Assembly: GCA_043811105.1 (NCBI GenBank)
Contig: JBDRNK010000087.1
Location: 1 to 43,676, forward strand
Direction: 5' to 3'
Source of the DNA: Candidatus Uhrbacteria bacterium
Lineage (GTDB): Bacteria; Patescibacteriota; Patescibacteriia; UBA9934; CAZDDW01
DNA: 43,676 bases
The translations under genes were made by a program, and so were the position numbers. The notes beneath the pieces are model-generated. The model had not been told where the DNA came from, ran no database searches, and saw nothing but the letters and a program-made list of their open reading frames with translations. Position 1 is the first letter of the stretch, and every line of letters begins with the position of its first letter. Shown here piece after piece: positions 1,785-42,630 of the stretch.

Positions 1785-2510
1785 GCGCCCTGCTAAAAGT
1801 CCCTTAACAATTCAGTTAGAGTAAAGACATCAAAAATTAAAATAAGATCGGCATTTGGATCCCTTGTTTCGAATTTTTCGTCCGAAACCAAGGGGCTGTA
1901 ATCGGAATGTCGAAAAACACGCTTTTGTAGCTTTAAAATAAAAGTGTGGGAAAATCTCAATAAGAGTATATCGGTGGATGCCTTGACATAAGAAGACGAT
2001 GAAGGACGTAGCAGCCTGCGATAAGCCGCGGTGAGGTGGCAAGCAACCTTTGACCCGCGGATCTCCGAATGGGGAAACCCCCTCTCTTGAAGAGAGAGGA
2101 AGCTCAGCCTTTAAGGCGAGCTGGAAGACCCGGCGAACTGAAACATCTTAGTAGCTGGAGGAAAATAAAATAATAATCATTCCCTGAGTAGTGGCGAGCG
2201 AAAGGGGAGGAGTCTAAACCCAAATGACTGAGAAATTAGTCCGGTTCGCCGGATTGATTTCAGAAGGCTCTGGAGCCATATGTTTTTTCGGTGTTGCAAG
2301 AAATTAGTGCCTGTTGCCAGACCAACGGGGCGAAGTAAAAAAAGATAATTCTTAGTTGAATGAGCTGGAAAGCTCAGCCAGAGACGGTGATAGCCCGGTA
2401 AGCGAAAAGAATTGACTCTTCGTGGCTAGTTCTCTTAAGTAGGGCGGGACTCGTGAAATCCCGTTTGAAGCCAGGTCGACTATGACCTAAGACTAAATAC
2501 TTCTTATGAT

Positions 2511-2547
<37 letters not shown>

Positions 2548-3303
2548 CATCCCGTTTAGGGAGGTGAAATAGTATCTGAAACCATATACTTACAAAGAGT
2601 CGGAGCCCCGCAAGGGGTGACGGCGTGCCTATTGAAGAATGAGCCAACGAGTTTGTTCTATGTGGCTGGCATAATCTCCTTTGGAGAGCATGCAGAGTGA
2701 AAGCGAGGGTTAATAGCCCGTTTGTGCTTCGCTTTCGTCCAACGTTTAGCTGGGTCGCAAGACTTAGATATTCGCTAGCGGGACGGAAGCGTAGCATTTG
2801 TCGCATGGACAAGACCCGAAGCCGAGTGATCTAACCATGAGCAGGTTGAAGTTCGTCGAAAGACGGATGGAGGACCGAACCCGTTAGTCGTGCAACACTA
2901 TGGGATGACTTGTGGTTAGCGCAGAAATTGTAATCGAACTCGGCAATAGCTGGTTCTCCTCGAAATAGCTTTTGGGCTAGCCTCGGATGTTGACCTCAGG
3001 GGGTAGAGCACTGGATGAGGGCGGGTCGCAAGATACCGTCTTCAATCAAACTCCGAATACCTGGGGGTAGAGTCCGGGAGTCAGACTATGGGCGCTAAGG
3101 TTCATCAGTCGAAAGGGAAACAGCCCTGATCACAATCTAAGGTCCCTAAATCTATGCTAAGTGTCAAAGGTGGTGTTGCGACTACGACAGTTAGGAGGTT
3201 GGCTTAGAAGCAGCCATCCTTTAAAGATAGCGTAATAGCTCACTAATCAAGTTGTTTCGCGCCGAAAATTTATCGGGGCTAAGCATAGTACCGAAGATGT
3301 GAA

Positions 3304-3404
3304 CTGTCTAGATTTTTGTTTTTTATCGAACGAACCCTAAATTTTGCTAGGGGTTCGTGAAACGTAGTATCTATGTGATAGATAGAAGTCAAAAATCTAG
3401 ACAG
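3304..3404 (+). other. ~100-nt expansion segment within 23S (branched hairpin)
   Basis: ctgtctagattttt (3304-3317) pairs with aaaaatctagacag (3391-3404). It sits between the conserved ccgaag and ggtagaggagcgttc, where E. coli has a short helix. Confidence 0.6.
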
Positions 3405-4137
3405 TGGTAGAGGAGCGTTCCCTTCAGCGTTGAAGTCGTGTCGTGAGGCACGGTGAAGCGGAGGGAAGAGAGAATGTTGGCATGAGTAGCAAAAAGGCGG
3501 GTAAAAACCCCGCCCATCGAAAACCTAAGGTTTCCTGGGCAACGAAAATCGACCCAGGGTTAGTCGATCCTAAGGCGCATCCCGTGTAGTGCGGGAGCTA
3601 GCCGATGGATGAGCCGGTTAATATTCCGGCACTACTGTTATTTTCCGATGGGGAGACGCAGTTCTAAAGTTTAAGCGCGCTATGGTATGTGCGTTTGCGG
3701 TCTCAAGAAACGGCTTAGGTAAATCCGGGCCACCAGTTTCAAGGGATTGAGAAGAGATGAAGCCGCAAGGCGGAATCAATTTAAGCGGCAGAACTGACTA
3801 GAAAAACCTCTAGGGCTAAAGTAACAGTAATCGTACCGTAAACCGACACAGGTAGGTGAGGCGAGAAGCCTCAGATGTACGAGAGAAACTTCGTTAAGGA
3901 ACTCGGCAAAACAGCGGCCGTAATTTAGAGATAAGGCCTGCCCTCGCAAGAGGGCCGCAGCTAAAGAGCCCAAGGGACTGTTTATCAAAAACATAGCTCT
4001 CTGCTAACTCGCAAGAGGATGTATAGAGGGTGATGCCTGGCCAGTGTCCGAACGTTAAGAGGAGAGGTTAGCCGCAAGGCGAAGCTTTGAATCGAAGCGC
4101 GGATGAACGCCGGCGATAACTATAATCGTCCTAAGGT

Positions 4138-5009
4138 TTTGCAATTTATAATTAGATTGCAAAAGGACTGGGACGATTATAAGATAAAACAGTTTAACAT
4201 TAATATTAGTAAGTCATTAAAAAATTCGCTGCCTAGCCATAGCGAAAACTATGGTGTGTCACAATATTTGACTATATGCTGGAAACTCTGTGGGTAAAAC
4301 CCTGTAGTATCGAGCGCTACTTAATGGTATAATGACAAGGTGTAATTATTCCTTGTCTATATGTTAGTAAGTAATAATGCGTCTCGCGCAGACAATCAGC
4401 AGGAAAGACTAATGATGATCGGTTGGATAGTCGGTTTTGTAGATGGTGAAGGATGTTTTTCAATTAATTTTGTAAAACAGGCCGATAAAAAGGAAAAAAC
4501 CAGAGTTCGTAAAGGATACAAAATTGGCTTCCAAATTATTCATAGATTCGCGGTAGTGCAAAGTGAAAAGAGTATTGATACTTTAAAGAAATTGCATAAA
4601 TTTTTTGGAGTCGGCAACGTATATATTAATCGTCGCCATGACAATCATAAAGAAAATTTATACAGGTACTCAGTATCTAAAAAGGAAGATTTAATAAGAG
4701 TAATTATTCCTTTTTTCCAAAAGAATATTCTAAAAACCTCAAAGAAAAAAGATTTTTCTTTATTCGTTGAATGTATAAAATTAATAGACAAAGGAAAACA
4801 TTTAACCGGAGAAGGAGCTATAAAAATTGCTCAACTTTGCGAAAAAATGAATCAACAAAAACCGAAAACAGAAATCATTAGAATCCTCAGAAACCAAACG
4901 TCAAACTCCGTCATTCGCCATTTAGCGGATCGGAGAAGATAGAGTTCTATCTGCATAGCGATATGCAGCCACGAAAGTGGGTTTAGTAAATAACTAAATA
5001 AAATGAATT
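4138..5009 (+). mobile_element. group-I-like intron/insertion in 23S domain IV, carrying a homing endonuclease
   Basis: It splits the conserved cgtcctaaggt|agcgaaattcc, which is the I-CeuI recognition sequence region. The 3' boundary base is T rather than the canonical G, so the exact splice site is uncertain. Confidence 0.7.
4361..4942 (+). CDS. LAGLIDADG homing endonuclease (single-motif type)
   Basis: 193-aa ORF inside the 23S insertion, with the motif GWIVGFVDGEGCFSI. Confidence 0.85.
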   Translation: MLVSNNASRADNQQERLMMIGWIVGFVDGEGCFSINFVKQADKKEKTRVRKGYKIGFQIIHRFAVVQSEKSIDTLKKLHKFFGVGNVYINRRHDNHKENLYRYSVSKKEDLIRVIIPFFQKNILKTSKKKDFSLFVECIKLIDKGKHLTGEGAIKIAQLCEKMNQQKPKTEIIRILRNQTSNSVIRHLADRRR

Positions 5010-5540
5010 AGCGAAATTCCTTGTCAGGTAAGTTCTGACCTGCACGAATGGCTTAACCACTTGGGCACTGTCTCAACGAAGTACTCGGTGAAATTGCAAT
5101 ACGAGTAAAGATGCTCGTTAACCACAGTTGGACGAAAAGACCCCGTGAAGCTTTACTACAACTTGATATTGAATTAGGGATATGCTTGTTCAGAATAGGT
5201 GGGAGCCTTCGGGCGCCAGTGAGATACCACCCTTGTTTATTTTTAATTCTCACCTCGCAATAGCGGGGGACAGTGTCTGGCGGGTAGTTTGTCTGGGGCG
5301 GATGCCTCCCAAAAGGTAACGGAGGCGTTTACCAAGGTCGGCTATCCCGGAATGGAAACCCGGGAGATAGTGTAAAGGCAAAAGCCGGCTTTACTGCGAG
5401 ACCTACAAGTCAAGCAGTCGCGAAAGCGGAACTTAGTGATCCGACCATTCAATATAGGATGGTGGAAGCTCATCGGATAAAAGCTACTCCGGGGATAACA
5501 GGCTAGTCAGGTCCAAGAGTCCACATCGACGACCTGGTTC

Positions 5541-5573
<33 letters not shown>

Positions 5574-5583
5574 GTGGAGAAGC

Positions 5584-5651
<68 letters not shown>

Positions 5652-6088
5652 AAAGATAATCGACGTATCTGATGTTATAAAACTTTTCGTCTGCACAATC
5701 CAGTTTTAAACTGGACGACCGTGCTGTCATTAAATTTGGCTAAATGCTGGAAAGTCTGAGTTGGTTTGTTTTGGAGAATAAACCAAAAGTATCTCACACT
5801 ACTCGTTTTAATATATTTGTTAAAGCAGTGATAATGTGTTGAGTGCAGATAATCAGCAGGAAAGACCCTGAGCGAAGCTCGCAAGAGCTGAGTCAAAGGG
5901 AATCCTCAGAGACTATACGCCAAACCCCCCTTCGCCAACCTCCGTCGCCCTTCGGGCTATGGAGGTCAGGAGGTTTCGGGGGGAAGATATAGTCCGAACT
6001 GTATGGCGACATACAGAGTCAGAGTGAAATCTCTGGCCGCCACAAGCAAGTCAGATTCAGGATGTGGTTTTGCAAAGTAACAGAATTG
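5652..6088 (+). mobile_element. ORF-less group-I-like intron in 23S at the I-CreI-type site
   Basis: It splits gtcgtgagacagt|tcggtc. The 5' exon ends in T and the intron ends in G. It shares core blocks with the first insertion (tgctggaaa.tctg, gcaga.aatcagcaggaaagac, gaatcctcaga). Confidence 0.7.
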
Positions 6089-6132
6089 TCGGTCTCCTAT
6101 CCGCCACGGGCGTCGAAAGTTGCGGGAACCTA

Positions 6133-6173
<41 letters not shown>

Positions 6174-6397
6174 ACCGGTTGTTCTGCCAAGGGCATTGCC
6201 GGGTAGCTACGTTCGGTTTGGATAAGCGCTGAAAGCATATAAGCGCGAAGCCGATCCCAAGATTAACTTTCATTATGAGATCCCTCCGAGATGAGGAGGT
6301 TGATAGGCTCTAGGTGTAAGCGTGGTAACACGTTCAGCCGAGGAGTACTAATAGATCCAGACTCTACAATTACTTAATAAGAATGTTTCGTTCTAGA

Positions 6398-15450: not shown

Positions 15451-15526
15451 GGGCCCGTAGCTCAGTTGGTAGAGCACCTGCTTTGCAAGCAGGGGGTCAG
15501 GAGTTCGAGCCTCCTCGGGTCCACCA
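15451..15526 (+). tRNA. tRNA-Ala (UGC), CCA encoded
   Basis: gggcccg acceptor with G3:U70. Anticodon loop tttgcaa. T-arm ggagttcgagcctcc. 3' cca present. Confidence 0.95.
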
Positions 15527-31182: not shown

Positions 31183-31310
31183 ACACTTCGGCGGCTTCAC
31201 TTTTAGCAAGGAGCATAACTGGGGGTATGATAATGAGGGGGAGGCAAGGGAACTAGGTATTAAAGATATTCAGAATTTTTTGTAAGATTTGACCAAGTTA
31301 AGTCAAAATT

Positions 31311-31335
31311 AAGCCCTGATTTTGGGCTTATTTTA
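31311..31335 (+). terminator. intrinsic terminator
   Basis: aagccc-tgatttt-gggctt followed by attttag. Confidence 0.5.
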
Positions 31336-31359
31336 GTAAATAGTGTTGTTTGTCAGGTC

Positions 31360-31388
31360 TTGACAAAACTATATTTTGGTGCTATACT
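31360..31388 (+). promoter_or_regulatory. strong sigma70-type promoter for the downstream ncRNA
   Basis: TTGACA (31360-31365), 17-nt spacer, TATACT (31383-31388). Confidence 0.6.
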
Positions 31389-31394
31389 AGTAAA

Positions 31395-31878
31395 AGATGA
31401 TTCAAAAATAATCTTGTGAGAGAGCCCTGGCCGGGGATAAGGCAAAGAGTAGAGAGTAGAAAGTAGAAGGTAGAAAGGAATAAGCTTATATAAGCTCCTT
31501 TCTACTCTCTACTATCTACTTTCTACCCAAAACGGATGTGTAGATCTCTTTCCGAGGTAAACAGGTCTGTTTATTTTTTTCACTCAGAAACCTGGGGGGA
31601 GAGTCCCCCTTCGCTCCTGAAGGAGCTACGGGGGATAGATAAACCGTTACCAGTAGGGCTTATGCCTGAGAGGTGCGGTGAGCTTAACAGGCTTAATCAG
31701 ACCAGGCTTAGGCTTGCTCTATAGTCATAGTTAAGCTCACGAGCTTATATCTGCTGCTTGCAGCGTTCACTAAGTTCACATCACTCCCAGATTTCTGAGT
31801 GAAAACTCAGCTTAAGGCCCTGTAATATTCTAGTAAACTAGATATAGGACAAAGGTGGTTCGAATCCACTCGGGGCCA
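31395..31878 (+). ncRNA. unclassified ~480-nt structured RNA with a tRNA-like 3' end (tmRNA-like, not confirmed)
   Basis: Own promoter and no credible ORF. Long-range pairs: cactcagaaa (31580) with tttctgagtg (31793); gtgagcttaac (31676) with gttaagctcac (31730). 3' end: GGAC-aaa-ggtgg-TTCGAAT-ccact-cggggcc-A. A candidate 5' acceptor strand ggccctg lies at 31816. No G3:U70. Confidence 0.45.
31447..31527 (+). repeat. REP-like long hairpin R4 (GTAGA-repeat arms) inserted in the ncRNA
   Basis: gagtagagagtagaaagtagaaggtagaaagga ... tcctttctactctctactatctactttctac. A second copy lies at 42555-42630. Confidence 0.75.
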
Positions 31879-31955
31879 GCAAAGAAAATACATCACCAGC
31901 GTTGTTGCTGGTGGTGAAGATCTATAAAAACATGTATTGCTGAAGGAGATGTTTG

Positions 31956-33290
31956 ATGACAGCGACACCGGGTTACGCAAGCGCTCTGGGAGCAGCGCCG
32001 CATTCGACGGCGATGTTCAACCTGTTGACCTTCAACCAGGTCGTGGCCACCCACGGCGGAACAGAGGATTGGATCGAGGCCTGCAAGGCGATTGGCTTCG
32101 ACGAGATGCCACCGCTGGCCGGGCGTGAGGTCCCCAAGGGCCTCTGTCGGGTCTGTGGTCCGAGGGTCGACGTCGAGCAGATCGCTGACGGCGAAGGTCT
32201 GTGGCAGGACGGTGAGTTGCCCGACCTGATCGACGCCGCAGACGAGTACCTGCTCGATCACGGCTACGACATCAACGGCAACCTGATCGACGACCTGGAC
32301 GACGACGAGGACGACGACGAGTTCGACCAGGACCTGGAAGTCCAGGAGAGGTTCGAACTGGCCGAGTTGAAGTCTGCGGAAGATCATCTGCGGACGATCG
32401 CCTATAACGACTTCGGTCACGGTGAGGTGACCTGCTGGAAGGCGTATTATCGCACCCAGTATCGGCCGAGCGTCATCGCCGCACAGTCCAAGGCGCAAGT
32501 GGCCAAGCAGTGGTCGTTTGACGTGCCCTATGGCTGGTACGGCATGTTCGATCGAGACGAGATCGAGCGACCCGAGACCGACGGTCTCGAAGATGTCGAA
32601 GCCTGGATGGCCTGGCACGAAGCAGGTCTGCCCTTCGACGTCCTGTTCGAGCAGGAGATGCTCGAGTTCAACGAGCCCTTCGTTGACGTGTCCGATCCGG
32701 ACTTCGACCATGACTGGGACTGGCACTACCGTGACCGGTCCATGGCCTGGGAGGATTTCGACGAGTACGATGATGACGACGATGATCTGGACGACTGGGA
32801 TCGCATGGACGACGACTGGGGTGATCCCTACGCCGACGGCCTCAACGATGAGTGGTCGATCGACGACAACTCCTGGGAGGACAATGATCCTTACGGCTTC
32901 TGGGACGAGGAAGACGGCTGGAACGAGTACGACATCCGTCGCTCCTGGGGTTTTGGCAAAGGCAGTGGTCGTGAACAGCTTTCACTGGAGTACTTCCGGC
33001 AGAAGCACCCTCGGGTTGAGGATCTCCAGGAAGAGTTCGAGCTGGAGGAGATCAGGGTCAGGGTTCGTGAGAGCCACGACTCGTATCGCCTCTGGCAGGA
33101 AGAGTACGGGAAAGATAACCAGGCCTGGAATAGCTGGAAGCGCTATCGGTGTGCACAACGCTGGCCAGTGGTTCACTCGGTTCCATGGGGTGAGGCTACT
33201 CGACATTTGGCCGCAATCCCAATCAGTCTGGAAGACGACTTCCAGGATCTGCTTCTCGAGGATCTGATGGATCTCGAGGACGCCGCCTAG
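31956..33290 (+). CDS. highly acidic Asp/Glu/Trp-rich protein (hypothetical)
   Basis: 444 aa. gaaggag SD 7 nt before ATG 31956. Runs such as DDLDDDEDDDEFD and DDDDDDLDDWDRMDDDWGDPY. Confidence 0.65.
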   Translation: MTATPGYASALGAAPHSTAMFNLLTFNQVVATHGGTEDWIEACKAIGFDEMPPLAGREVPKGLCRVCGPRVDVEQIADGEGLWQDGELPDLIDAADEYLLDHGYDINGNLIDDLDDDEDDDEFDQDLEVQERFELAELKSAEDHLRTIAYNDFGHGEVTCWKAYYRTQYRPSVIAAQSKAQVAKQWSFDVPYGWYGMFDRDEIERPETDGLEDVEAWMAWHEAGLPFDVLFEQEMLEFNEPFVDVSDPDFDHDWDWHYRDRSMAWEDFDEYDDDDDDLDDWDRMDDDWGDPYADGLNDEWSIDDNSWEDNDPYGFWDEEDGWNEYDIRRSWGFGKGSGREQLSLEYFRQKHPRVEDLQEEFELEEIRVRVRESHDSYRLWQEEYGKDNQAWNSWKRYRCAQRWPVVHSVPWGEATRHLAAIPISLEDDFQDLLLEDLMDLEDAA

Positions 33291-35898: not shown

Positions 35899-35925
35899 AC
35901 CGCCATGTAGGCGGTGGTTCGAATC
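35899..35925. terminator. hairpin between convergent genes, overlapping a T-arm-like 13-mer
   Basis: aaaaaaccgcc-atgt-aggcggt. ggtggttcgaatc (35913-35925) is identical to 31854-31866. Confidence 0.45.
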
Positions 35926-40643: not shown

Positions 40644-42560
40644 ATGTGTGGAATCGTTGGCTATATAGGTAAAAAACAGGCCCTGCCGATCTTAATTGAT
40701 GGGTTAAAGCGTTTGGAATACCGTGGTTATGATTCGGCTGGGGTGGCGTTGTTGGGTGAGGGGGGTTGTCAGATTATTAAGAGTCCGGGGAAGATAGTAG
40801 GATTAGAAGAGAAAGTCTCAAGTTTCAAGTCTCAAGTCTCAAGTGCTGGAATCGCTCATACTCGCTGGGCGACTCATGGGCCTCCGACTGAGGCCAATGC
40901 TCATCCGCATACTGATTGCTCTGGCAAAATTGCCTTAGTTCATAACGGAATTGTTGAGAACTATCAGGAATTGAAACAAGAATTACAGGAGAAGGGACAT
41001 CAGTTTCGTTCAGAAACGGATACTGAAGTGTTGGTGCATTTGATTGAAGATTGTTTAAATAATGTAGCGGAAGGCTTTAGCCTTCCATGTCAGCAAAATG
41101 GAACCCTCCCACCTTCGCCAAGGCTTCGGCGGGCAGGAAAGGGTTCCTCTACATTAGAAATGGCAACCAGAAAGGCATTAGAACAAGTGCGCGGCACTTA
41201 CGGTATTGCTGTAGTTTCATCTGATCATCCAGATCAAATCGTGATTGCTCGCATGGGCAGCCCGATTGTTATTGGTGTGGGCACTGATGATTTTTTTGTT
41301 GCTTCAGATGCTTCAGCTTTGTTAAGTCATACCCGCAATGTAATTTATCTTGACGATGGCGAGATGTGTGTTTTACGACCGGACGGTTATTCGATTAAGA
41401 CTTTGGGTAATCGATCAGTGGCTAAAGAACCAGAAGTTATTGAGTGGTCAGCTGAAGATGTTAAAAAAGGTGGACATCCGCATTTCATGAAAAAGGAAAT
41501 GATGGAACAGCCAAAAGTTTTGGTTGATTCTATTCGCGGTCGTTTAAAACCAAAAGATGGAAAAGCCGTGCTTGGTGGTTTAAGCGATGTTGCCGATCGT
41601 CTGCGTCAAATTGATCGACTAATTATTGTTGCCTGCGGTAGTGCCTACTATTCCGGCCTGGTCGGCGAGTATATGTTGGAAGAATATGCTGGTATTCCAG
41701 TGGAAGTAGATCTGGCTTCAGAGTTTCGTTATCGCAAACCGATTATTACAGATCGCACAGCCGTGCTTGCAGTTAGTCAATCCGGAGAAACCGCAGACAC
41801 ACTAGCAGCGATCCGTGAGGCAAAAGAAAAAGGTGCTTTAACCTTGGGAATCGTTAATACGGTTGGATCGACCATAGCTCGGGAAACCGATGCCGGTATT
41901 TACAATCATGCCGGCCCGGAAATTGGAGTGGCTTCAACTAAGGCTTTTTTATCGCAAGCAACAGTCTTTGCTTTATTAACCATGTTTCTTGGTCGACAGC
42001 GATCAATGTCAATGGTCATGGGTAAGCGTATAGCTGATGAGATTCAGATGCTTCCAGACAAGTTGCAATCAATCATTAACCAGTTTGATCAGATCTCGCT
42101 TCTGGCTCAGAAATACAAAGACATGCAAAATTGTTTGTACTTGGGACGAAAATACTGTAGTCCAATTGCTTACGAAGGAGCTTTGAAACTTAAAGAGATT
42201 TCTTATATTCACGCTGAAGGTTATGCAGCTGGAGAAATGAAACACGGTCCGATCGCTTTGATTGATTCAAACTTTGTTTCCGTTGTGCTATGTCCAAAAG
42301 ACTCGGTTTATGAAAAAACTATATCTAACATCGAAGAACTTAAGGCTCGTGGTGGTTCGATCATCGCCGTGACAACTGAAGGCAACGATTCGATTAAACA
42401 AGTCGCAGATGATATAATCTATATACCAAAAACTTTAGAAATGTTAACTCCAATTTTGGCTGTGGTTCCGTTGCAAATTTTTGCTTACGCAATTGCTACA
42501 GCTCGTGGTTATGATCCGGACATGCCCAGGAATCTGGCTAAAGCCGTGACCGTGGAGTAG
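40644..42560 (+). CDS. glmS: glutamine--fructose-6-phosphate aminotransferase
   Basis: MCGIVGYIG N-terminal nucleophile. GIAHTRWATHG. Two SIS domains. C-terminal ...AKAVTVE. Confidence 0.95.
   Translation: MCGIVGYIGKKQALPILIDGLKRLEYRGYDSAGVALLGEGGCQIIKSPGKIVGLEEKVSSFKSQVSSAGIAHTRWATHGPPTEANAHPHTDCSGKIALVHNGIVENYQELKQELQEKGHQFRSETDTEVLVHLIEDCLNNVAEGFSLPCQQNGTLPPSPRLRRAGKGSSTLEMATRKALEQVRGTYGIAVVSSDHPDQIVIARMGSPIVIGVGTDDFFVASDASALLSHTRNVIYLDDGEMCVLRPDGYSIKTLGNRSVAKEPEVIEWSAEDVKKGGHPHFMKKEMMEQPKVLVDSIRGRLKPKDGKAVLGGLSDVADRLRQIDRLIIVACGSAYYSGLVGEYMLEEYAGIPVEVDLASEFRYRKPIITDRTAVLAVSQSGETADTLAAIREAKEKGALTLGIVNTVGSTIARETDAGIYNHAGPEIGVASTKAFLSQATVFALLTMFLGRQRSMSMVMGKRIADEIQMLPDKLQSIINQFDQISLLAQKYKDMQNCLYLGRKYCSPIAYEGALKLKEISYIHAEGYAAGEMKHGPIALIDSNFVSVVLCPKDSVYEKTISNIEELKARGGSIIAVTTEGNDSIKQVADDIIYIPKTLEMLTPILAVVPLQIFAYAIATARGYDPDMPRNLAKAVTVE
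41064..41153 (+). repeat. 90-nt nested REP-like insertion (R3 inside R2), in frame within glmS
   Basis: gtagcggaaggctttagccttccat gtcagc aaaatggaaccct[cccaccttcgccaaggcttcggcgggcagg]aaagggttcc tctaca. Encodes VAEGFSLPCQQNGTLPPSPRLRRAGKGSST. Confidence 0.75.
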
Positions 42561-42630
42561 AGAGTAGAAGGTAGAAGGTAGAAAGGAATAAATTTAACTC
42601 CTTTCTACTCTCTACTTTCTACCTTCTACT
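42555..42630 (+). repeat. REP-like long hairpin R4 filling the glmS to HD-gene spacer
   Basis: gagtagagagtagaaggtagaaggtagaaagga...tcctttctactctctactttctaccttctac. Its first TAG is the glmS stop, and the ATG of the next gene follows at 42631. Confidence 0.8.

Follow-up and report, generated by a model that had tools for sequence, protein, structure and literature searches.

A structured RNA module associated with GC-rich gene arrays in one order of Patescibacteria

Antitermination leaders (phage HK022 put and Bacillus EAR/epsC) are structured cis-acting RNAs of ~70–150 nt that head, or lie inside, long hairpin-rich operons, and RNase III stems (rRNA operons and T7 early mRNA) are 20–30-bp duplexes that flank a structured RNA within a polycistronic transcript. 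The element compared with these systems here was a structured RNA located at 31395–31878 of the window, i.e., of the whole 43,676-nt stretch analyzed, which constituted the entire contig JBDRNK010000087.1 (C87) of a Candidatus Uhrbacteria genome (assembly GCA_043811105.1; 1.08 Mb in 111 contigs, 95.7% complete). This genome under study was designated G000, and G001–G003, G005, G016, G023, G039, and G127 denoted other genomes compared. A sequence-only reading of the window had pointed to a structured RNA, preceded by a strong promoter, that could not be classified, and this was borne out by covariation and by the lack of an assignable Rfam family. The RNA represents a previously uncatalogued structured RNA family, absent from Rfam 15 and, as far as searched, confined to one Patescibacteria order whose named records were Candidatus Uhrbacteria; its conserved module is tentatively read below as a cis-acting leader of GC-rich gene arrays.

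Fold, covariation, and distribution of the module

The initial homolog search (BLAST against 60 relatives) identified four same-genus copies of the RNA. These four copies shared the promoter and a 5′ domain whose last element was a terminator-like hairpin with a U-run; a U-run/CUCAGAAAYCUGGGGGGAG strand then paired with a CUCCCAGWUUCUGAG/A-run strand, and the ~145-nt core inside displayed very high identity. Comparative folding, which the sequence-only reading had recommended, was carried out with RNAalifold on the four copies and yielded a closing helix P1 plus three arms P2 to P4, with 15 compensated pairs. The module was organized in the window as follows:

31574–31805, plus strand: conserved module overall, with P1 as the closing helix around a three-way junction
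31574–31603, plus strand: 5′ strand of P1, composed of the U-run and CACUCAGAAACCUGGGGGG, then the unpaired junction AGAG
31637–31781, plus strand: three-way-junction core, matched by covariance model R2 at 128.4 bits and the sole module in the window
31644–31678, plus strand: P2, an arm of the core
31680–31738, plus strand: P3, whose conserved tip reads GAC-N-GGC / GCU-N-CUC and includes a C-C mismatch alongside a G-U pair that is invariant
31741–31777, plus strand: P4, with a conserved AYAYC...GRUCACUG asymmetric loop
31782–31805, plus strand: 3′ strand of P1, composed of CACUCCCAGAUUUCUGAGUG and an A-run pairing with the U-run

The long-range helices proposed from the sequence were confirmed in P1, where CACUCAGAAACCUGGGGGGAG (31581–31601) paired with CUCCCAGAUUUCUGAGUG (31784–31801) and compensatory changes in relatives kept the pairing.

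Covariance model R1 was built on the core and picked up remoter members, including second tandem copies; model R2 was built from 22 sequences. In a model-fitted alignment of 59 sequences, 92.4% of cells could pair, compared to 31–42% when the partners were slid by 1–3 columns; 41 of the 45 base pairs had changed on both sides, none of 500 shuffles reached the observed covariation values, and the 22-sequence alignment agreed. A model-free MAFFT alignment of 15 diverse members recovered apical P3 and P4, with 13/17 pairs compensated. P1 was examined separately because it lay outside the covariance model: with 46 nt taken per side, it had a mean energy of −33 kcal/mol (−17 kcal/mol for shuffles) and a median of 28 pairs, the helix spanning 20–30 bp. 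Of the 57 members, 47 reached a z below −2; those that failed carried insertions, as does the one in the window. The inner part of P1 kept a GGAGG/CCUCC type in ~90% of members, and the outer part covaried freely. Conserved nucleotides were gathered in three spots (apical P3, the asymmetric loop of P4, and the purine junction GGAGGAGAGAG after P1), the first two varying hardly at all, and the stem tips were interchangeable among GNRA, UNCG, and CUUG tetraloops. The element is an RNA-level fold, and, as is typical of riboswitches, this covariation-backed fold was placed in a 5′ untranslated region (UTR) co-oriented with the genes.

Model R2 matched 110 of the 151 genomes of the same order (100/129 for high-quality ones), mostly with one copy and in some cases with two or three, and it had no match in a sample of 147 genomes from the class's other orders; statements on the absence of the family hold for the order, class, and phylum genomes searched. 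When 185,579 species genomes were scanned with a degenerate pattern, 29 loci emerged, of which 26 were re-tested; the 20 that matched the model came from Uhrbacteria/Patescibacteria records or mislabelled metagenome-assembled genomes (MAGs), and loci from outside the Candidate Phyla Radiation (CPR) failed the model. Likewise, the public named records with the same RNA were Candidatus Uhrbacteria or Patescibacteria MAGs, several of them mislabelled 'uncultured Gammaproteobacteria'. A phage or plasmid origin was rejected: viral contigs gave 0 pattern matches and phage/plasmid collections no blastn match. Five further family members were also without an Rfam match, and a limited literature search found neither the RNA family nor the Uhrbacteria GC-rich arrays described.

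Known RNA classes were compared with the element in turn. The sequence-only reading had considered a divergent transfer-messenger RNA (tmRNA) and held that this would fail if a canonical copy lay elsewhere in the genome; a search for another ssrA found one on contig C97 (G000:C97:7272-7707, i.e., locus L001 1501–1936; RF00023, 124.8 bits, 436 nt), and the proposal was given up. ARAGORN run on the whole genome overlooked this C97 tmRNA, which was caught by the Rfam model. The region 31250–32000 had no match to any tmRNA family (RF00023; permuted alpha, beta, and cyano) even at E ≤ 10, and at this cutoff the whole of Rfam gave only spurious miRNA-precursor matches plus sub-threshold tRNA- and mascRNA-type matches on a tRNA-like 63-mer (see below). 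There was no G3:U70, tmRNA-type pseudoknots were not identified, and no tag peptide came from ARAGORN or the tmRNA models, no wider tag search being made.

RNase P RNA was considered for the likeness of GAGAGAGCCC...GGGCUUAU to its conserved regions CR-I/CR-IV and for the blank result of RF00010 in G000, and it was rejected: relatives carried an RNase P RNA elsewhere in addition to this RNA, the topology differed, and the element had no RF00010 match. RF00010, without a match in G000, was present in G001, G002, G003, G005, and G016, and its lack in G000 is likely an assembly gap. 6S RNA (RF00013) had no model match either, and the covariation described a junction of three stable arms instead of a rod. 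Several further likenesses were considered and rejected, finding no Rfam support: glycine riboswitch (GGAGAG starts), ZTP and cobalamin riboswitches, group I intron P7-like motifs, glmS ribozyme (glmS lay 9 kb downstream), retron, and type III antitoxin repeats.

Signal recognition particle (SRP) RNA came into question because no SRP RNA was detectable and a DnaX-like gene adjoined many of the loci. It was rejected on the grounds that the element had no RF00169/RF01854 match and no helix-8 motif, that the P3 tip was fully paired with a freely varying tetraloop, and that the genome yielded neither Ffh nor FtsY, nor an SRP54 or SRP_SPB domain. Searches for the SRP itself gave the following: (i) five genomes of the order gave no match to RF00169 or RF01854; (ii) the Ffh M-domain PF02978 was not found in the three genomes searched; (iii) the SRP54 GTPase domain PF00448 gave only weak P-loop matches in G000, G003 (complete), and 81 order, 81 class, and 61 phylum genomes, with 14/14 control genomes positive and with RNase III found by the same tool in these genomes; and (iv) the motifs DTAGR, TKxD, and GxxGxGKTT yielded nothing FtsY- or Ffh-like in six frames of G000. 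These results mean either that Patescibacteria lack the SRP to a surprising extent or that the search method overlooks it. A complementarity between the RNA and SRP loss was rejected, SRP54 being not found across the class and phylum samples and the RNA being order-specific.

GC-rich gene arrays behind the module

A GC content of ≥0.55 (0.55–0.67) was observed downstream of the module in 34 of 47 loci. Same-strand open reading frames (ORFs) with a third-codon-position GC content (GC3) of 0.7–0.95 began 10–340 nt past the core; ordinary genes of one related genome (G003) had a GC3 near 0.4. The proteins of these GC-rich arrays belonged to no Pfam family, and the arrays ranged in size from zero to >8 kb. 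Terminator-like sites were present within 260 nt past the module in only 5/56 loci. Extra modules occurred 1–2.5 kb apart within arrays (none of the four internal copies checked had a promoter-like site upstream), and tandem second copies without P2 also occurred. In the complete genome G003 (C1, ~3300–5000 of the reverse complement of L073), the cargo was ~1.7 kb and comprised a small peptide gene plus a 401-aa gene with a GC3 of 0.80.

In 13–19 loci, the unit was found at one syntenic site, flanked by a divergent DNA polymerase III delta′/DnaX-like gene and a convergent TrmB-like regulator gene. Genus g1, which included G000, harbored the module-plus-array unit in other neighborhoods; in the window, the unit followed ileS plus two unknown genes, and glmS was located past the island (the GC-rich block). 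The GC content rose from 0.43 to 0.60 at 32001, and no terminator was found ahead of the first island gene. The RNA had initially been taken for the insertion point of the island: it did mark the 5′ edge of the GC-rich block, here and likewise in most relatives, but a one-off insertion fitted less well, and the edge pattern better suits a conserved RNA-plus-cargo unit than a single island insertion into an RNA gene.

Flanking elements and insertions in the window

The module was accompanied in the window by the following features:

31310–31330, plus strand: intrinsic terminator hairpin and T-run of the upstream gene, the same hairpin being kept in G002 contig 13
31360–31388, plus strand: sigma-70-type promoter TTGACA-17 nt-TATACT with an extended −10 TG, 11/12 matches
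31396–31580, plus strand: 5′ domain, recognized visually in several f1- and f2-family members
31447–31527, no strand assigned: heptamer-repeat hairpin (GTAGARR), a host-repeat insertion outside the conserved RNA, with many copies in G000
about 31601–31636, no strand assigned: small palindrome, a second host-repeat insertion, between P1 and the junction, with copies in G000
31816–31878, plus strand: tRNA-like 63-mer combining acceptor stem, T-arm, and a single hairpin, sub-threshold for Rfam tRNA and found in this genome only
31894–31913, plus strand: 7-bp GC-rich hairpin between the 63-mer and the first island gene, with no plus-strand T-run
31943–31959, plus strand: Shine-Dalgarno sequence GAAGGAGA and start (TTG at 31953 or ATG at 31957) of the first GC-rich gene

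The near-consensus promoter noted from the sequence held up, and we infer a transcription start near 31395. The RNA was regarded as its own transcription unit because the terminator of the upstream gene precedes this promoter. The motif CTTGACAAA...TATAMT was common to all four same-genus copies, and a promoter-like site was located 5′ of 23 of the 54 family members. The ~560 nt between the promoter and the first island gene contained no conserved ORF, in accordance with the original description: the only ORF of at least 40 aa fully within this stretch was a 62-aa frame (31536–31724) that crossed helices covarying as RNA, and a 57-aa minus-strand frame (31807–31980) overlapped the 3′ end of the stretch.

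Within the 5′ domain, the purine box GUGAGAGAG (31416–31424) could pair, as read by eye, with the loop AGAUCUCUUU (31542–31551) of a terminator-like hairpin (31533–31569) that was followed by a U-run (31570–31580). In several members of f1 and f2, inspection by eye likewise gave a purine box able to pair with the loop of such a hairpin. Between promoter and module, 27/54 loci carried a strong hairpin with a T-run, and 10 had a GAGAG/UCUCUC pair, and in the f5-type members examined the promoter was 45–80 nt from P1.

The presence of two inserted host repeats was corroborated by copies elsewhere in the genome and by the absence of both from the orthologous RNA in the same-genus G002 contig 13. 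The 31447–31527 repeat had copies on C6, C111, C33, C12, and C71 of G000 and at 42555–42629 of the window; GTAGARR heptamer hairpins were scattered in G000 and its relatives G002, G023, and G039, and they accounted for the spurious plant miRNA-precursor matches in Rfam. The ~31601–31636 palindrome had copies on contigs C89, C15, C55, and C45 and was also missing in G001 contig 3; a related insert occupied the same site in G002 contig 1 (L020). Palindromes at one P1/junction site in two RNA subfamilies suggest a preferred target or a tolerated position.

Three characters of tRNA were present in the 63-mer, namely an acceptor stem of 7 bp, a T-arm (GGUGG/CCACU) whose loop read UUCGAAU, and A as the discriminator base. 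The minimum free energy of the 63-mer was −22.1 kcal/mol (z = −2.9). The acceptor partner that had been noted 63 nt from the end was supported by both the model alignment and the fold; in a global fold, the 3′ strand of the 63-mer could alternatively pair with GCCCUG at 31425. Against the Rfam tRNA model (RF00005), the 63-mer scored 25.3 bits (gathering score 29), with the D and anticodon arms deleted in the alignment, and ARAGORN made no call here, its sole call in the window being tRNA-Ala at 15451. The 63-mer was single in the genome and lacking in all same-genus orthologs and other family members examined, and for its uniqueness in the genome and its absence from the same-genus orthologs it was not taken to define the 3′ end of the RNA. 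Thus, of the tRNA-like 3′ end initially described, the acceptor/T-arm shape stood, but tRNA identity and conservation did not; similarly, the ~480-nt RNA was indeed structured, but as a composite of 5′ domain, conserved module, and tRNA-like piece. An origin as a fragment of the genome's own tRNAs was rejected (no BLAST match; a likeness to the T-arm of a relative's tRNA-Val was generic). The preferred reading of the 63-mer is a lineage-specific addition or relic that does not belong to the family; it could offer RNase P a place to separate the module from the mRNA.

No att-type duplicate of the 3′ end of the RNA was found in the island beyond a 13-nt match: an exact copy of the T-arm sequence GGTGGTTCGAATC lay at 35913–35925 beside a CCGCC/GGCGG hairpin, with dissimilar flanks, and was probably a chance occurrence (expected count ~0.001). 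The 31894–31913 hairpin was terminator-like on the minus strand only, and no credible minus-strand gene entered it. Other genes in the window included those for 23S rRNA (with a group I intron), 5S rRNA, and tRNA-Ala. The 23S rRNA gene was 4.4 kb long (1950–6366) and contained the intron at 5697–6016 plus further long insertions; long 23S rRNA insertions are common among CPR bacteria.

Proposed function and comparison with known systems

The module is interpreted as a cis-acting leader of the GC3-rich orphan gene array, an interpretation held with somewhat less than even confidence. It was favored because of the same-strand 5′ position of the module, the few terminators after it, the internal and tandem copies, and the conserved inner P1. 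Since P1 is too long and too stable for riboswitch-style switching, the junction would probably be a constitutively folded platform; the stability of P1, together with the lack of an expression platform, also made such a platform preferable to a metabolite riboswitch. The platform would bind a protein, RNA polymerase, or a ligand and would license or tune the downstream genes through processive antitermination across the intergenic hairpins; alternatively, RNase III cleavage within P1 may process and stabilize the mRNA. In G000, the additions to this device would be the 5′ domain with its terminator-like hairpin as a possible attenuator, the two host repeats, tolerated by the fold, and the 63-mer as a plausible RNase P cleavage site.

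Several points weigh against the cis-leader interpretation: (i) L036/L058, L047, L069, and L078, which belong to the loci at the DnaX-like/TrmB-like site, presented the RNA stand-alone and free of cargo, with a convergent host gene 35–200 nt downstream, and at least one stand-alone copy had its own terminator; a pure cis-regulator without a target should decay; (ii) in G127 (family f2; L033, G127:C36), the module (71–210) was followed 150 nt later by a genuine tRNA-Arg(CCG) (361–437) and then by a terminator, an arrangement that looks like a stable-RNA operon; (iii) a regulon would not usually consist of orphan, variable genes such as those of the cargo; (iv) the module had no likeness to the antitermination RNAs in Rfam, including the epsC/EAR model; and (v) the covariation counts came mostly from model-fitted alignments, the statistics being slid-partner and shuffle comparisons instead of R-scape tests.

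These points lend themselves in part to a stable trans-acting RNA of housekeeping type that RNase III would excise at P1, the cargo riding on the strong unterminated promoter as islands do beside tRNA or tmRNA genes and the 63-mer adding an RNase P cut in G000. Near-universality in the order with usually a single copy in family f5, the conserved DnaX-like/TrmB-like site in 13–19 loci, the retention of the fold in stand-alone copies, the succession of module, tRNA-Arg, and terminator in G127, and a 20–30-bp P1 like rRNA processing stems (RNase III was encoded in G000) all accord with such an RNA. It is nevertheless considered unlikely, although it is the main rival, given that 51/56 loci lacked a terminator past the module, that copies occurred inside arrays (the four checked without a promoter-like site), that the link with same-strand GC3-rich ORFs was tight, and that no known housekeeping RNA fitted: tmRNA lay on another contig, RNase P RNA lay elsewhere in relatives, and the fold was neither 6S- nor SRP-like. 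A three-way junction whose junction and loop nucleotides are invariant and whose tetraloop-capped stems vary freely, its same-strand 5′-UTR position, its tandem copies, and the conserved GGAGG/CCUCC of P1 would be expected of a ligand-sensing riboswitch aptamer, sometimes tandem, that controls translation of the first gene by opposing Shine-Dalgarno-like GGAGG to anti-Shine-Dalgarno-like CCUCC. Such competition is possible in principle, but a P1 of mean −33 kcal/mol and ~28 pairs is far too stable for switching, terminator-type expression platforms were not apparent (terminator-like sites in 5/56 loci), the distance to the start codon varied (here 170 nt with intervening elements), and the cargo genes had no evident common function, so that a riboswitch is improbable.

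Still less credit is given to the module as a recombination landmark, i.e., a landing pad or attI/attC-like boundary for the exchange of GC-rich cassettes. Modules did recur between cargo blocks, cargo differed among close relatives behind the same module, and the unit occupied differing neighborhoods within genus g1; opposed to this, no integrase or recombinase adjoined it in the window or among the conserved neighbors named, the invariant G-U pair and RNA-type tetraloops pointed to selection at the RNA level, and the island contained no direct repeat of the 3′ end of the module, which was present once in the window. Hardly any weight remains for a tmRNA of divergent type or for some other RNA whose defining trait is a tRNA-like end: the acceptor-plus-T-arm shape at 31816–31878 and the possible pairing of its 3′ strand with GCCCUG at 31425 speak for it, and the canonical copy on C97, the lack of a model or ARAGORN match here, and the absence of the tRNA-like piece from the other members examined speak against it.

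In a bolder reading, considered unlikely, the RNA would be a new functional class, namely an expression-licensing element for a hypervariable pool of GC3-rich orphan genes in Uhrbacteria (a new antitermination or processing device) or a new ribozyme or protein scaffold released by P1 cleavage; either way, the tie between the RNA and its foreign-looking cargo would have been kept order-wide. For the uncultured CPR bacteria, almost no non-coding RNA biology has been described, and the family provides a well-supported, order-wide RNA of ~150–250 nt whose boundaries are clear, for which a covariance model works, and whose genomic partners are orphan arrays of GC3 0.8–0.9. Should these arrays be controlled or processed by the RNA, the latter would offer a handle on how ultra-small symbionts express fast-changing accessory genes; if it is instead a stable RNA, it would be a new lineage-specific housekeeping RNA.

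Among known systems, tmRNA (ssrA) resembled the element in being promoter-driven and several hundred nt long, with a T-arm plus acceptor-like 3′ part in one genome; it differed in that the real ssrA lay elsewhere, G3:U70 was lacking, and the tRNA-like part was not conserved. Like mascRNA/MALAT1-type signals, the 63-mer combined an acceptor stem and a T-arm with a single hairpin where a tRNA would carry its D and anticodon arms, which is the shape of a minimal RNase P substrate; this was a resemblance only, since the mascRNA-menRNA model describes a eukaryotic family, its score was 20.8 bits against a threshold of 42.5, and the 63-mer occurred in one genome. In the integron platform (Pc plus attI), a conserved promoter-bearing element likewise heads a strain-variable array of small, promoterless, hairpin-separated orphan genes, whereas here no integrase was found among the neighboring ORFs, no attC signature was present, and the element was selected as an RNA fold. 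Riboswitches, including tandem glycine riboswitches, had in common with the module the three-way junction, invariant loop nucleotides, covarying stems, 5′-UTR location, and occasional tandems, and they were set apart from it by its far too stable P1, the lack of an expression platform, the unrelated orphan genes, and the lack of an Rfam riboswitch match. Compared to RNase III stems, the module displayed a similar duplex around a structured RNA in a polycistronic transcript of a genome encoding RNase III, but it enclosed a conserved 145-nt three-way junction that was not rRNA, and cleavage here is only predicted. Compared to antitermination leaders, the module had no sequence or model similarity (Rfam), possessed a very long closing helix, and could occur several times in a single array, but like them it was a structured RNA at the head of, or inside, a long hairpin-rich gene series with no terminator directly after it, and its position fitted that of an antitermination leader.

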